In this document: in pieces, positions 380-38,479 of the stretch
Position numbering within the stretch: position 1 is the first letter of the stretch
Layout: each line of letters opens with the position of its first letter
Virus record (IMG/VR): IMGVR_UViG_3300042904_000308
Span: 51,173 to 115,172 of that record
Source of the DNA: a virus
Length of the DNA: 64,000 nt
Strand: one strand, 5' to 3'
Notes under the pieces: model-generated
Databases searched by the model: none
Seen by the model: the letters and a program-made list of their open reading frames with translations, nothing else
Told to the model about the DNA's origin: nothing
Translations under genes and position numbers: made by a program

Positions 380-607
380 TTAATCATCGATAGGGTGACG
401 ATCTGCATAGGAGCAGATCAACCCCAGCCCGATGCACAACGACAACACATATAACAACGCTGTAATAATGCCAAGAGGAATGAACAGATTAAGCGCAACA
501 CCGACAGCAAACATTCCACCGACCACATACCCAACTGCGGCAAACAACACCAGCACCCGCAGGAACATTCCAAATCCGAAACTCACTCCCTCTCTGACTA
601 TCTCCAC
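380..607 (-). CDS. small membrane protein
   Basis: 75 aa with two hydrophobic segments and an RBS. Confidence 0.6.
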   Translation of the reverse strand: MEIVREGVSFGFGMFLRVLVLFAAVGYVVGGMFAVGVALNLFIPLGIITALLYVLSLCIGLGLICSYADRHPIDD

Positions 608-618
608 CTGTCACCCTT

Positions 619-828
619 CTAATACTTACCACTCAACTTCGCGTCGATGATCGCCAGCAGCAAACCTCCGACGAGAACCTCAGCTCCAATGAAACTGCAG
701 CCTGCCAGAAAGTGGTAGTCGAAAGCCATCTGGCCGAGCAGAATAGAACCGACGACGATACCAGCAACGATAGCCAGTCCGACAGCGATCAGGTATATCT
801 GCAAGGCAGTCTTTAGAATCTCAATCAC
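619..828 (-). CDS. small membrane protein (paralog-like N-terminus to 885-1088)
   Basis: MIEILKTA..., hydrophobic, GAGGGG RBS. Confidence 0.6.
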   Translation of the reverse strand: MIEILKTALQIYLIAVGLAIVAGIVVGSILLGQMAFDYHFLAGCSFIGAEVLVGGLLLAIIDAKLSGKY

Positions 829-11514: not shown

Positions 11515-11549
11515 AAAAAGAAAAACGCCCCGACGTCGTTGTCGAGGCG
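11515..11549 (-). terminator. intrinsic terminator
   Basis: CGCCTCGAC/GTCGGGGCG hairpin followed by a T-rich tract on the minus strand. Confidence 0.6.
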
Positions 11550-12857: not shown

Positions 12858-13028
12858 CATCTAAACTCGACCTTTCGAAGGTGCGATACCACCGCAGCGG
12901 TCAAATTCAGAAGCGCTACGCGCTCCTAACCCTGGCGCTTCGGCGCTCTCTGAGCTGATAGCTCTTGTGTGGTTTAGATGCTCACGTGTCGCTCTTGCGA
13001 TCAAGTGATGACGTGAGCATAGACCACA
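12858..13028 (-). ncRNA. putative structured leader RNA
   Basis: Multiple inverted repeats in a 170-nt intergenic region (see findings). Confidence 0.4.
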
Positions 13029-13846
13029 GGTTATTAACGTGTCAAGAGCAATTGTTCACTGCGAGACTCCTGACACACATTTGACACACCCGTCAGTGAG
13101 ATACGTGAAACTGGTAGGCTCCATAATCCCGTATCGAGATAGGCCTGCGCCTCGATCACGCTCTCGGATGCGAGCGTTACGGTGGCCGAAAAGAACCATG
13201 TCTTGATGCGATCCTCATACCACGACACCCCCAGTTCACCAACAACCGCTGGCACGATTCCTGCGACATCAAACCGTTCCACTACTGCGCGAGGGATGCG
13301 TATCGGTACCACCTTGGCTCTGCGTTCAACGCCACCAGTGGCAATCCACTCCTCCGTCGAGAGGAGAAAGGCTGCGTCATCAGCTGACACAGCCTCCACA
13401 ACACCACTCACGAGCGCCACGTAGTTAGCCATCAACACGCTCGTCACTTGCTAACGTGAAGTGAACGTACTGCGTGTGCATGAGGCCCAGCAGCTGGGAC
13501 ACGTGAGCGCTCTCAACTGGCGCGTCGTCGAGTGTTTCCAGCATGTGTTCCGAGAGCCCTCGCTGGATCAGTCCCTCCAGTGCGACATCAGCACGCACGA
13601 GCGCCTGAATCTCCGTCGGAGATGGAAGCTCATCACCGTGCAACGCCACCATCGCGGGACCATCGTCGTCCGTGCCGACCGACAGCCCCCAGTCGTTGGG
13701 GCTCTGCACCATGACCTCGGTGTACTTGCTGGAGCAGATCACCCACCCCTCGTCGGGGTTAAGCTCGCTCAGCGGCGTTGCGCTGGTCTTGAGCGGGTAG
13801 CCGAGCTCGGATGCGAGCACGTCTGCCGCTCGAATGTGGTCGAACA

Positions 13847-18699: not shown

Positions 18700-18900
18700 C
18701 TCTCCCTTCTGGCGTCCTGGCCGCGTATCACGCTCGTCAGCGTGGCGGCTGGGGGCACCCCTGACCCTGCGGGTGCGGTCTGCCTTGCCGCACCTTTCGC
18801 CTGCAGGTTGCCGCTGGGCGCACCATACGATCTGCAGAGGTCCGCTCTTCTCGAACCCGTCACAGCACTCCGTGCCTGATCAGGACGCCAGAAGGGAGAG
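18700..18900 (-). ncRNA. putative structured ncRNA closed by a perfect 20-bp stem
   Basis: CTCTCCCTTCTGGCGTCCTG (18700-18719) and CAGGACGCCAGAAGGGAGAG (18881-18900) enclose internal hairpins. It lies downstream of a promoter and a boxA-like motif. Confidence 0.65.
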
Positions 18901-18924
18901 TGTTGGCCCCGTGGTTGGGGCCAG

Positions 18925-18943
18925 TATTCACTTGTCAAAGTTC
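18925..18943 (-). promoter_or_regulatory. boxA-like antitermination motif
   Basis: GAACTTTGACAAGTGAATA just after the promoter, similar to motifs at 36667-36685 and 36871-36888. Confidence 0.5.
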
Positions 18944-18966
18944 AGAATGAAGCTGCGTCTCTCTTC

Positions 18967-18996
18967 ACTATACGCGAAGACGCAACTAGCTGTCAA
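18967..18996 (-). promoter_or_regulatory. sigma70-type early promoter
   Basis: TTGACA-N18-TATAGT. Confidence 0.8.
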
Positions 18997-26337: not shown

Positions 26338-26858
26338 CGTGACTACCTCTCTCTACCCTAACACAGATTCCAGCGTCTCGACCGCTTCGAGCATGTTCGC
26401 CCGAGCTTCCTCGATCTGCGCCAGCAGCCGCTTCGATACCTGCCGCCTCCCCCTTGCCTGGGCCTCTACCGACTTGAATCTCGATGCCGCATCAGCCGCC
26501 TTACGTCGAGCCGCCTCGATGCGCTCCGCCTTCTCGACAGCCTCCCGCTTCCGCCGTCGCTCGACGCGATCCCTGATCCGCTGTTGATCGAAGTCCGTGA
26601 AGAAACCCTCCAGCTGCACCGTGAACCTCCTCTACCCTTCCATTCCCGCTCGGCTTTCAGCTTCCAGTTCCAGCCTGTGAGCTTCGTCATAGCCCACCCA
26701 AATCTGCACGGTGCGTCGAATGCCGCGCTCCATGAACAGACCCCGATCTTCGACAACCCTGCTGTCCTCCTTCATGTCCCGAAACGCCCCAGCCCACAGC
26801 TTCAACAGTAGCTCCCGCTGCTCGTTATCCACGCCTGAACCTCCTCGCTAAACCAATC

Positions 26859-26978
26859 GGTGGAGCTGGGGGGAATCGAACCCCCGTCCAGACCACGAGC
26901 CACCCTTATAGAGTGGATGGGCTTGTTTCTGTGCGCGTTCTCGCCCGTCCCGTACCCTGTCGATACCATGACAGCCCC
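26859..26978 (-). ncRNA. ssrA-like: miniature tmRNA (tRNA-like domain intact, mRNA-like domain reduced)
   Basis: 5' GGGGCUGUCAUGGUAUCGAC and 3' GACGGGGGUUCGAUUCCCCCCAGCUCCACC. Acceptor stem GGGGCUG/CAGCUCC has G3.U70 and A73. It also has a T-arm and a P2-like stem, and is only 120 nt long. Confidence 0.85.
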
Positions 26979-35474: not shown

Positions 35475-36278
35475 CTAGGCCTGAGCCACTACCCCGAAGA
35501 TAGGTAGATGGGATACATGGAACCCGAAACCCGCAAGGTTCCACAGTGTCCATTGGACCGCGAATACTGGCAGTTCGGGAAGTTCAACGCTCGCCCAAAC
35601 CTGCCACGCCTCACTGAGAATCTGGTACGCGGCGTCACTGGTGAATGTCGGGTTTACCGTGGCATCCTCACCCGCCGCGTACAGAGATAGGCGCATCATC
35701 CAAACGTCGAGCGTGAATACTGGCGCGTAGCAGTCCCACAATGCGACCGCCATCGACGAGGTTTTGGCCCCCATGCCGCGTAGGGTAATCAAGCGGTCAA
35801 ACGTCATATCGTCAGCGGTAATTGACTGCAATAGGGGCAGTGCTGCAAATACCGCTTGAGCCTTATTTCGCCAGTACATGAAGCGGCCAGACTCGCCAGA
35901 CTTGAGGGTAACGCGCATGACATCTTCCACGTCACCGACCGTTTGCAGGTTGTCGATGATCGGCGCAATGTTCGCCGCTAGTTCAACGTTGAAATTGAAC
36001 GCCAGTTGCGGCGATAGGATGGCGAACAGCACGCAATGGCGAGCGTATAGCGTGGGATTGTCGAGCCGCATTGATTGCATACGGGTGAGTTCGGCCAGCA
36101 CTGGCGCGGCATTTTCACGCACCAACGCGGATAGATTCACGCTGGAATCAGTCAGACTATCCGCAAGGTTTTGCGCGTGGGTTTTGTTGATTGCCAGCGT
36201 GGGCAGTTCGGATTTGCGAGCGTACGAAACCGTATGCAGATTGCCTACGGAGTGCGGGTTATTGATTGTGCCGAGCAT
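35475..36278 (-). CDS. HhH-superfamily DNA glycosylase/AP lyase-like protein (Ogg-like)
   Basis: AILSPQ, RF.YWRNKA, HhH motif LITLRGMGAKTSSM with Lys, and LDVWMMR carrying the catalytic Asp position. Confidence 0.65.
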   Translation of the reverse strand: MLGTINNPHSVGNLHTVSYARKSELPTLAINKTHAQNLADSLTDSSVNLSALVRENAAPVLAELTRMQSMRLDNPTLYARHCVLFAILSPQLAFNFNVELAANIAPIIDNLQTVGDVEDVMRVTLKSGESGRFMYWRNKAQAVFAALPLLQSITADDMTFDRLITLRGMGAKTSSMAVALWDCYAPVFTLDVWMMRLSLYAAGEDATVNPTFTSDAAYQILSEAWQVWASVELPELPVFAVQWTLWNLAGFGFHVSHLPIFGVVAQA

Positions 36279-36303
36279 TGACTATCTCCCATTCATTGCC
36301 TAG

Positions 36304-36668
36304 TGTCGCCAGCCGCGAAACACTGCCAAACATCCCGTAGGATGCTAGGCAGTGCATAGGCTAGTAGAGTGATTCACTACGTACTAGCCTCACACTGTAT
36401 CCAACCTGCTATTACTAGCAGTCCCTTACCCTAGTAGGTGCTACGCCACTAGGGTAACTTGCGGTTAGCTATTCGCCATCGTGCCTACCGCGATTCACGA
36501 AACTATGGAATATCGCCCCGACTGTTACCAGTGATGTATTGCCGTTTGCCGCTAACCCGCTCGCCTCATTAGGGTAGTGAGTGACTCACTAGGCGAAACC
36601 TACTACCGTGAGGGATAGAGCCAAACTAGCGATACTCGCAGTACCAGTGCTGGTAACGTCTGGCGATA
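36304..36668 (-). ncRNA. large multi-branched structured RNA (early leader domain 2)
   Basis: Closing stem TGTCGCCAG/CTGGCGATA encloses at least six hairpins. There is no ORF. Confidence 0.65.
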
Positions 36669-36692
36669 TGAACTTGTCAAGGTGCTAAGAGA

Positions 36693-36872
36693 ATCTAACC
36701 GAAACCCGAAGGGTCTACGTTCGTACGGAACCGTTCCACGGTAAGCAATGTTTGGACGTTCGCTAGGTTCCTCGCATCGGTTTCGAGCCTAGGCTAGAAA
36801 CCTGACGGGTTAGCGTCCCGAGCGTCAAGGCTTACCCTACTGTGTGAGTGCTGCCGTACGACCGCGTTAGAT
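36693..36872 (-). ncRNA. rod-like structured RNA (early leader domain 1)
   Basis: Nested inverted repeats ATCTAAC/GTTAGAT, CGTACGG/CCGTACG and GGTAAGC/GCTTACC, lying between two boxA-like motifs. Confidence 0.6.
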
Positions 36873-36933
36873 GCAATTTGTAAAGTGCGCGCCCCCTCGT
36901 TGCCGAGTGGCGTTTGTCATTGCTGACACTGGT

Positions 36934-36962
36934 AATCTAGCAAACGCTGATCAGGATGTCAA
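36934..36962 (-). promoter_or_regulatory. sigma70-type major early promoter
   Basis: TTGACA-N17-TAGATT, heading the minus-strand arm. Confidence 0.8.
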
Positions 36963-38479
36963 TACCCTAATTCCAGATGCCCCTACGCGCATATAATGAA
37001 AGCGGCCAGGCCGTTTGCAATGTTGAATATGCAGATAAACATTGGGCAAACGGGGCAATTTGAGGCAATTTTTGAGAATCGTAAAATTGCCTCATATTTG
37101 ACCGCTCATCCCTCACATTATGGCAACCTATCGCCCTGGTCGGCATGGTTCTACGACCTCGTTAGCGGTAGCTATTCGAGCCTGCAATGTGTCGTGAATA
37201 GCAGTCTGGCGTACGCCGCTAGCACGCCGCTAGCAGTGCCCCTACAGTGCCGCTAGTGATGCCCCTAGCCTATCGTGGGAGATGCCCCTATCGTGCCACT
37301 GGTACGCCAGACGGGGCAGGCACGATTCATGAACGGCAATTCACGATAGCCTGGTTTCGTTACTAGGCAGTAAGCAATGGCGGCGGGTTGGTAACTGGCG
37401 AGTAAGGAAGTCGAGCGGGTGAATGTGAACGAGGGTATAGAATGGACGGGTTGGGAGTGAACGAGGGTAAAGTATGGGATTACTAACAGTTCGTCACATA
37501 CGCGGATTATTACCAGTGGGTTAGATATGTGAGCTGCGTTTGTGAATGTGCGGTAAGTGGGTATGTGAACGAGCATAAAGCACATATGTGAACGAACGAT
37601 AAGCGACCAGGCGAGTGCTGACAGTCAACCTAATCACTATTAGGCGGGTTGACACTCCAGACGGGGCTAGAATAGTGCGTACGTACGCGGGTTTAGGGGT
37701 GGCGTGGCCCCTCAAATCCGCTCCATTCGCGCGTTATGTTGACCGCTGCAAGTCACCAAAATAACTGCCCACTATTTTCGCAAATGCGCCTCGTTCAGCT
37801 CCCCCGCCCCGCTCGATTTTCACCGTTTTCGAAGCCGATCTGAGCCGATTTTCGAAATTCCAGGCGGTATTTTCGCCCTGGAAGAAATTCCTGAAAAATT
37901 CGCGCAAAATTTGGCCCTTTCTGGCCCTCTTTTCATTAAACGCCACCAGAGCGTCACTGTTGAGGCCAAAAATGGGCCTGAGAGCCGCGAAATGTCACAC
38001 GAATGACACAGATATCGCGTAGGACGGCCTTTTCGGCCCTGAGGGCAAGAATGAGGCCATACCCCGAGCCTGGGCCTCACCTGCCGTCGGAAATCATGAG
38101 CGCTCTCTCTCGTGACCGAGCGCACCCTGGTCGACGGCTTACTCCTCTCTCTGTGTGTGTACTCTCCCCTATGGAATGGGAGGGGCTCAGGCCAGGGGAT
38201 CGATCCGAGCTCGGACGCCTGCGCAGGCAGCTGGTACGGATTGTGCTATAACGCTGATTGCTAGGAGAGCTGGCTGCAACAGCTGTCCTGGTACAGCCAG
38301 AGGCGAGAAGCGTCACCCGAGCTCAGGGTGGCGCTTCTTTAGCTCGACCAGAAAACGTACGTTGACCCTGCTAACGTACGCTTTATTAGAACGAAGGTTC
38401 TCTAGTACTATACCTATATTAGATATATAGGGCCGATTTCCTGAAACCCCAGCTCCCGCCTAGGCATTTGGGAAATGGG

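Follow-up and report, generated by a model that had tools for sequence, protein, structure and literature searches.

A long ORF-free leader with putative rRNA-operon-type boxA elements heads the replication-gene arm of an uncultured phage

The ribosomal RNA (rRNA) operons of Escherichia coli (rrn) carry the signals boxB, boxA and boxC in that order, and boxA is both necessary and sufficient for assembly of the antitermination complex. One model for this system is that boxA, tethered to NusB, holds a strand at the RNA exit, and that this strand stays there until the one it pairs with has appeared (PMC10250234, in which nut/N antitermination in phage lambda is also summarised). Phage T7 has a boxA as well, for which a genetic and antitermination function has been reported (PMC3709561). 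Here we analyse a window of 64,000 nucleotides (nt), the right 64 kb of the 115,172-bp IMG/VR phage contig IMGVR_UViG_3300042904_000308 (~80% complete), and focus on a leader on its minus strand that is free of open reading frames (ORFs) and contains two boxA-like motifs, each followed by a domain of predicted RNA structure. The leader is located at the head of the minus-strand arm, which holds the replication genes. We lean towards the view that it is the structured, untranslated 5′ part of the first transcript, and that it is protected by boxA and the Nus factors in the style of an rrn operon.

Among described systems, the early control region of T7 and the rrn leader come nearest to the locus studied here. 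The T7 region comprises the host promoters A1-A3, boxA, the R0.3 RNase III hairpin and gene 0.3; in the T7 record, boxA (CGCTCTTTAACAATCTG) lies ~60 nt behind promoter A3 and ahead of gene 0.3. Our locus resembles this arrangement of a lytic-type phage in the order of its parts: a host-type early promoter, a boxA in the leader, a structured element and then the first early gene, a candidate anti-host gene. Its sequence can be read as a T7-type layout in which the RNase III-type element is a prediction. However, the T7 leader is ~170 nt long, with one boxA identical to that of E. coli and one short hairpin, and its boxA lies ~100 nt before the start of gene 0.3, which leaves room for little beyond that hairpin. 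By contrast, our leader is ~650 nt long, and its two boxA-like elements belong to another dialect (CYTTGACAAGT..ATA). Each heads a clamped domain of 160-180 nt, and a sister unit lies 18 kb downstream.

The likeness to rrn operons is in the succession of a hairpin, a boxA and the 5′ strand of a long-range helix, in the untranslated, structured nature of the RNA, and in the motif itself, which is identical to elements found before 16S and 23S genes. Unlike in rrn operons, the clamped RNAs of the phage measure 160-370 nt, are unrelated to rRNA and share their transcript with protein genes. Another phage parallel is phage phiEco32, in which a gene-free stretch of 1.9 kb between genes 124 and 125 contains four copies of GCTCTTTAA (0.1 expected) before a fold of ~900 nt with a z-score of -8.1. 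Copies of boxA stand ahead of a large fold in both phages, although the two regions have no sequence similarity by blastn and differ in lineage, boxA dialect and host. The nut sites of lambda and the put sites of HK022 are cis-acting RNA signals that lie behind early promoters and modify the host polymerase. Our leader resembles both in having a putative RNA signal just behind an early promoter, but neither an N-like gene nor a boxB/N pairing is apparent in this phage; put RNAs are ~70 nt long and independent of boxA, and neither nut nor put carries a structured leader of hundreds of nucleotides. Finally, the GOLLD and ROOL RNAs are, like this one, large, ORF-free, strongly folded RNAs of phage genomes with unknown functions. 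Those families are widely conserved, whereas the RNA described here is so far a singleton that matches no Rfam family.

The leader and its predicted fold

The contig has just four sites of the form TTGACA-N16-18-TAnnnT. One of them is the leader promoter (Table 1), from which transcription is predicted to start near 36927. The segment from 36304 to 36966 (663 bp) is the contig's longest run without an ORF of at least 50 amino acids (aa) in any of the six frames, the runner-up being 205 bp; on the minus strand, all ORFs within it are of 32 aa or less. An earlier note, made from the sequence of this DNA, had described the promoter, the ORF-free leader and a ribosome-binding site (RBS) at its end, and each of these was recovered. 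The protein encoded by the first gene has few homologues, one of which (P0003) is named endonuclease III by one source.

The complete leader folds with a free energy of -246 kcal/mol (z -5.4), which none of 20 shuffled sequences equalled in the shuffle comparison that the earlier note had named. As background, 20 other windows of 641 nt from the same genome gave a mean z of -1.3 (sd 1.2). Just one of these windows came close to the leader, with z -4.9, and it spans another promoter leader, at ~13.0 kb (promoter 13045). Domain 2, which comprises 2a and 2b in Table 1, reaches z -5.4 when folded alone (0 of 100 shuffles equal it), and the strongest local z-scores of the leader, from -3.7 to -4.8, fall within 2b. 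The hairpins listed in the earlier note are all exact inverted repeats, most with a pairing probability of at least 0.8. A single stem, TATCGCCAG/CTGGCGACA, had been thought to close the entire domain 2, but this pairing is not preferred. Instead, UAUCGCC (36668-36662) pairs with GGCGAUA (36517-36511) to close 2a, beginning 4 nt past boxA motif B, and 2b folds separately. Farther upstream, the second hairpin of the leader lies directly 5′ of motif A, the place that boxB occupies in rrn operons.

The loops of these hairpins differ between the strands. Among hairpins with at least four Watson-Crick pairs and a loop of 4 nt, five of six in the minus sense of the leader have a GNRA or UNCG tetraloop (GCAA, GCAA, GUAA, GUAA and UACG), whereas in the plus sense all six lack one. 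Across the genome, 6% of such hairpins have these loops, and a binomial estimate for the leader is ~4e-6; these five hairpins form the sole such cluster of the contig. The leader of a related phage contig, G001, has the same asymmetry, with four of seven in the sense orientation and none of seven in the antisense. Because the identity of the loops is strand specific, these counts point to selection acting on the minus-sense RNA, for which they are the strongest evidence obtained.

The same observations bear on whether the stretch might be decayed coding sequence, that is, pseudogenised early genes with structure arising by chance. The leaders of relatives are wholly different in sequence, as this explanation would allow. 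However, stops occur in all six frames across the 663 bp of a genome with 58% G+C, and a z of -5.4, the enrichment in tetraloops and the recurrence of the motif all speak against decay, which we find scarcely credible.

Table 1. Coordinates of the leader, its sister units and the upstream elements within the 64,000-nt window.
Feature	Position	Strand	Details
Leader promoter	36962-36934	minus	TTGACA-17-(TGc)TAGATT; sigma-70-type, 10/12 matches, extended -10 TG
5′-terminal hairpin	36915-36928	minus	UGUCA-GCAA-UGACA; GNRA loop, from about +1
Second hairpin	36890-36912	minus	CGCC.CUCG-GCAA-CGAG..GGCG; GNRA loop, pairing probability >=0.92
boxA-like motif A	36871-36888	minus	GCACUUUACAAAUUGCAU; weaker, E. 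coli/T7-like form; mean unpaired probability 0.63
Domain 1	36693-36872	minus	Irregular rod of 180 nt; closing helices AUCUAAC/GUUAGAU and CGUACGG/CCGUACG
boxA motif B	36667-36685	minus	GCACCUUGACAAGUUCAUA; mean unpaired probability 0.70
Domain 2a	36511-36668	minus	158-nt rod; eight stacked helices, each with pairing probability >=0.84
Domain 2b	36320-36457	minus	Train of four near-perfect hairpins; from inverted repeats and partition function
Hairpins of domain 2b	36427-36456; 36406-36421; 36358-36390; 36320-36355	minus	GUAA loop in 36406-36421; UACG loop in 36320-36355
RBS and first gene	35475-36292	minus	RBS GGGAGA 36292-36287; ATG 36278; 267-aa protein
Sister unit	18700-18996	minus	Promoter TTGACA-18-TATAGT (18996-18967), boxA C, small hairpin, clamped RNA, next gene
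boxA motif C	18943-18925	minus	GAACUUUGACAAGUGAAUA; in sister unit
Third promoter and leader	12860-13045	minus	TTGACA-N18-TATGCT; structured leader of ~180 nt
Iterons	37440-37600		CGTTCACAT-type; AT-richer, ORF-doubtful, 500-650 bp upstream of leader
Non-coding block	37677-37784		65% identity to G001 (L010 8221-8328) over 109 nt, E 4e-7

boxA elements and rRNA operons

Both boxA-like motifs of the earlier note are present at the coordinates it gave. An exact 12-mer within motif B, ACYTTGACAAGT, has only two copies in the window, at 36672-36683 and, in motif C, at 18930-18941. Both are on the minus strand, and they follow the two best-scoring sigma-70-type promoter matches of that strand. By the predicted starts, motif A lies at ~+40 and motif B at ~+245 from the leader promoter, and motif C at ~+20 from the promoter at 18996. 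In the predicted structures, each motif is followed by a long-range closing helix, at a distance of ~5 nt for motif A, ~4 nt for motif B and ~31 nt for motif C, which recalls the placement of boxA and boxC in rrn operons (PMC10250234). The boxA cores are themselves about twice as accessible as the leader in general, with mean unpaired probabilities of 0.61-0.70 for all three against a leader mean of 0.34. The core CUUUGACAA is one base off the CUUUAACAA of T7 and E. coli.

Evidence for the nature of the motif came from a scan of 185,579 species genomes for a 17-mer that spans motifs B and C. At least 7 of the 120 bacterial hits, from several lineages, are located in the leaders or 16S-23S spacers of rRNA operons in the sense orientation, whereas none is in the antisense. 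One hit (L049) precedes the 5′ end of a 23S gene by 87 nt and another (L052) precedes that of a 16S gene by 119 nt. The third (L076), also before a 23S gene, agrees with motif C at every position over 20 nt. Five further hits fall at contig ends, and assemblies commonly break at rRNA operons. Most of the bacterial hits are scattered, in line with the shortness of the word, and we estimate that far fewer than one hit in an rrn context would be expected by chance. The boxA-likeness claimed in the earlier note is supported for motif B, by way of the 17-mer in rrn leaders and spacers, and less so for motif A, which is weaker and only a partial match.

A different account of these motifs is that the leader is a plain 5′ untranslated region (UTR) that acts without Nus factors, its structure serving only to stabilise the message or to tune how the first gene is translated. 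In that case, the TTGACAAG words would not be boxA but remnants of -35-like promoter elements or accessories to them, or else they would be bound by a sigma or phage factor. Several features fit: the motif contains TTGACA, a perfect -35 hexamer; similar words in G001 (GCACTTGACAA) form the -35 element of real-looking promoters that read GCACTTGACAA-N17-TAnnnT; many of the 17-mer hits in viral contigs resemble AT-rich phage promoters; and a hairpin at +1 of the transcript is the classic layout of a 5′ stabiliser. The first three of these also count against a boxA assignment. However, reading of the sequence gave no -10-like hexamer 16-19 nt past motif A, B or C, and a promoter function for the motifs was rejected on this ground. 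The same word also occurs before 16S and 23S genes and in 16S-23S spacers, with no -10 element behind it in any of the five rrn copies examined (L049, L052, L076, L101 and L110), and its conserved tail, ..GT(G/T)(A/C)ATA, lies outside any promoter element. We therefore regard a plain 5′ UTR as unlikely, and accept the motifs as rrn-type boxA elements by their sequence and context.

The same word also stands at the front of short, GC-rich leaders of further viral contigs, L233 and L152 among them. In L233 (~460-700, minus strand), the rrn-type boxA word lies behind a promoter; in L152 (5600-6095, plus strand), it precedes an ORF-free leader of ~430 nt with z -2.1. The L152 leader and ours have a 19-nt boxA word in common and are otherwise without similarity. 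The pattern GAAC(C/T)TTGACAAGTGAATA may serve as a handle for spotting boxA leaders in viral metagenomes. A word search of the literature for the motif returned only unrelated papers.

Relatives and homology searches

No Rfam family (4,227 models, with GOLLD, ROOL and OLE among them) matched the leader at gathering thresholds or at E values up to 10. The gathering-threshold scan covered the window and returned only a transfer-messenger RNA (tmRNA) at 26858-26978, and the scan at E<=10, which covered 35800-37500, gave a single noise hit of 15 nt. The earlier note had not recognised the RNA as RNase P, signal recognition particle (SRP) RNA, a group I intron or a riboswitch, and these searches agree with it. 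A blastn search of the leader against 50,697 phage records, phiEco32 included, found no match. The leader has no DNA similarity in G001, and in the rest of its own contig it has only chance matches of 12-13 nt. A covariance model built from the single sequence of domain 2a was run against 0.97 Mb of loci that are related or bear a boxA, and it recovered nothing but domain 2a.

Relatives were found by alignment. Used singly as queries, neither the first gene nor the portal turned up a relative among viral contigs. By contrast, an alignment of first-gene homologues led to G001 and three metagenome contigs, and a portal alignment led only to G001 among viral contigs and to nothing in bacterial genomes. 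G001 (IMG/VR 3300048586; 127.9 kb), with a portal 48% identical to ours, is the sole viral relative found; a metagenome contig of 12 kb, L003, is a second relative. Both have a long, ORF-poor, structured leader that heads the same arm. In L003 (3560-4100, plus strand), a promoter is followed by ~500 nt with z -5.9, in which a long-range stem exceeds 20 bp. In G001 (L010 6160-6960, minus strand), the leader comprises ~800 nt with z -4.7 and several TTGACA promoters. The two leaders share six 7-mers with ours, against 1.2 expected, but these few words of 7-8 nt are not collinear, and we therefore consider the leaders analogous rather than homologous. Among these relatives, the habit of a structured leader is conserved and its sequence is not.

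The early transcripts of G001 start with a hairpin, GAG(U/C)GA-UGG-UC(A/G)CUC, in which a U-A pair is replaced by a compensatory C-G pair between copies.

Sister units

Two further units on the minus strand are built in a similar manner. In the sister unit at 18700-18996, a perfect 20-bp helix (18900-18881/18719-18700) clamps a GC-rich RNA of 161 nt (z -5.6). The boxA word of this unit, GAACTTTGACAAGTGAATAC, is identical to rrn elements, and the unit has no Rfam match. The leader at 12860-13045 is closed by CAUCUAAAC/GUUUAGAUG, and its boxA-like word, UUCUGAAUUUGACC, is merely degenerate. Motifs A, B and C share one grammar, which the phage uses three times: a helix begins within 4-31 nt of the boxA, and the domain that it encloses measures 160-180 nt.

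This layout is the way in which cells make stable RNAs, and it raises the question of whether domains 1, 2a and/or 2b, and the 161-nt RNA at 18.7-18.9 kb, are excised from the antiterminated precursor at their closing helices and act in trans as stable, stand-alone RNAs. Examples of such action would be a decoy or sponge directed at a host protein or defence system, and an RNA-polymerase mimic. The perfect 20-bp helix of the sister unit seems long enough for an RNase III-type site, clusters of GNRA and UNCG loops are typical of functional folded RNAs, and ~650 nt far exceeds what an antitermination signal needs, as T7 illustrates. However, no terminator or demonstrable cleavage site lies between the fold and the first gene, and neither a partner nor a target came to light. 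Even the relatives G001 and L003 lack a conserved counterpart of the RNA, no Rfam family matches it, 6S included, and domain 1 has a z of only -2.5. A 6S-like identity for domain 1 is not supported, on these last two grounds. We regard stand-alone RNAs as rather unlikely, although they can be compatible with, and additive to, a protected leader.

The earlier note had gone further and proposed a novel large non-coding RNA (ncRNA) transcribed like an rRNA operon. The structure, the non-coding nature, the lack of an Rfam match and the boxA elements, as judged by sequence, support that description, whereas a role as an independent RNA is speculative. It also seems improbable to us that the phage uses the rrn machinery (boxA, Nus complex and clamping helices) at two or three sites of its early arm to make excised, stable, trans-acting RNAs as soon as infection begins. 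If it does, rrn mimicry for phage RNAs would be a general strategy common to unrelated phages, such as the phiEco32 group, and the excised RNAs could act on the host, for example as decoys for a polymerase, for a factor in ribosome assembly or for one in defence.

A model for the leader

The explanation that we favour, a leader protected by boxA and the Nus factors, would work as follows. Host RNA polymerase would transcribe the leader from the promoter at 36962, and the boxA elements would recruit host NusB/NusE, with NusA and NusG and probably SuhB and S4, to the elongating enzyme. The polymerase would thereby become resistant to Rho over the ~650 untranslated bases and further along the arm; an untranslated stretch of this length would otherwise be an obvious Rho target. 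As proposed for rrn operons, the complex would keep the 5′ strands of the closing helices near the RNA exit, allowing the long-range helices to form. These helices and the train of hairpins might then act as processing sites, as stabilisers of the downstream message, or as both. We infer transcription, Nus binding, antitermination and processing of the leader from its layout.

Several observations weigh against this explanation, in addition to the promoter-like traits of the motif described above. Motif A is an exact fit to neither boxA dialect. In the arm, hairpins that resemble terminators are no more frequent than chance would give (8 found against 8.9 expected), and protection of the leader itself from Rho is therefore at least as likely as long-range read-through, the possible purpose named in the earlier note. 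Searches of viral, metagenome and genome collections gave no homologue that could be aligned with the leader, and the leaders of relatives cannot be aligned, which means that the fold is evolving fast or is just loosely constrained. Of the two structured domains proposed in the earlier note, domain 2 stands out clearly from shuffled sequence, but domain 1 alone is marginal (z -2.5, equalled by 3 of 200 shuffles). The plus strand of the leader also folds well (z -4.4), and the numbers of G-U pairs, 8 on the minus and 13 on the plus strand, favour neither strand.

To our knowledge, boxA-dependent antitermination in lytic phages has been documented mainly for T7. Here the putative signal occurs in a phage that is uncultured, not related to T7 and at least 115 kb in size, and its non-enterobacterial dialect agrees with rRNA operons from several lineages of bacteria. 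The repeated placement of boxA directly before clamped, folded domains, taken together with phiEco32-type regions, suggests a recurrent phage solution, in which a copied front end of the rRNA operon is a way to make long untranslated early RNA. This in turn raises the questions of whether the rrn complex is hijacked as a machine for folding foreign RNA, and of what purpose large early phage RNAs serve.

The control region upstream of the leader

Genes to the left of ~36 kb lie on the minus strand and include those for a DnaB-like helicase and a deoxynucleoside monophosphate (dNMP) kinase; genes to the right of ~38 kb lie on the plus strand and include those for the terminase, the portal and the head protease. 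The cumulative GC skew has its minimum and turns at ~35-36 kb, where the switch in skew coincides with the switch in coding strand. The segment at 36.97-38.6 kb, upstream of the leader promoter, looks like a control or origin region, and its iterons and conserved non-coding block, beside the skew minimum, are a probable origin or control region.

This neighbourhood invites the view that the leader functions at the DNA level or as the primer of a replication origin, through an R-loop or a primer RNA, for which ColE1 RNA II and T4 oriF and oriG are precedents. The iterons 500-650 bp upstream, the skew minimum, the upstream block conserved with G001 and the ability of both strands to fold well are all in keeping with such a function. 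Yet the stable tetraloops are strictly strand specific and are no requirement for DNA cruciforms, the promoter faces away from the iterons, a second instance of the architecture lies at 18.9 kb, distant from the putative origin, and the skew switch is also a switch of coding strand. An origin function of the leader is thus quite improbable, and a Nus-protected early leader is the reading that we retain.

A palindrome of 16 bp, AATTTGAGGCAATTTT/AAAATTGCCTCATATT, is present at 37057-37098, ~100 bp upstream of the promoter, together with additional GGCAATTT repeats. A word akin to it, GATGCAATTT (36867-36879), overlaps boxA-like motif A, ~50 nt past the start. The palindrome and this word could form a pair of operators on either side of the promoter.

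Other features of the minus-strand arm

Gene junctions in the first 6 kb of the arm share a repeat. Between 30181 and 35472 on the minus strand, GTAGRCACCTA occurs eight times (0 expected), each copy being followed by a stem-loop and CTGRTG. The stems are GC-rich and ~8-9 bp long, and they vary among the copies yet pair in every one. The flanks of the units supply a stop, together with a TGATG in which stop and start overlap. The units are not followed by a U-tract and are therefore not classic terminators.

Further along the same strand, the tmRNA match (RF00023; 26858-26978) extends over 121 nt with a score of 72.5 bits (E 3e-26) and spans model positions 1-374. It appears as a miniature gene in which the middle is absent, and it was not called by ARAGORN. 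An intergenic gap of 470 bp contains a clear intrinsic terminator at ~11520-11545 on the minus strand, with TTTTTCTTTTTC directly after its GC stem; beyond it, at ~11440, stands the word ACTTTAACAA.

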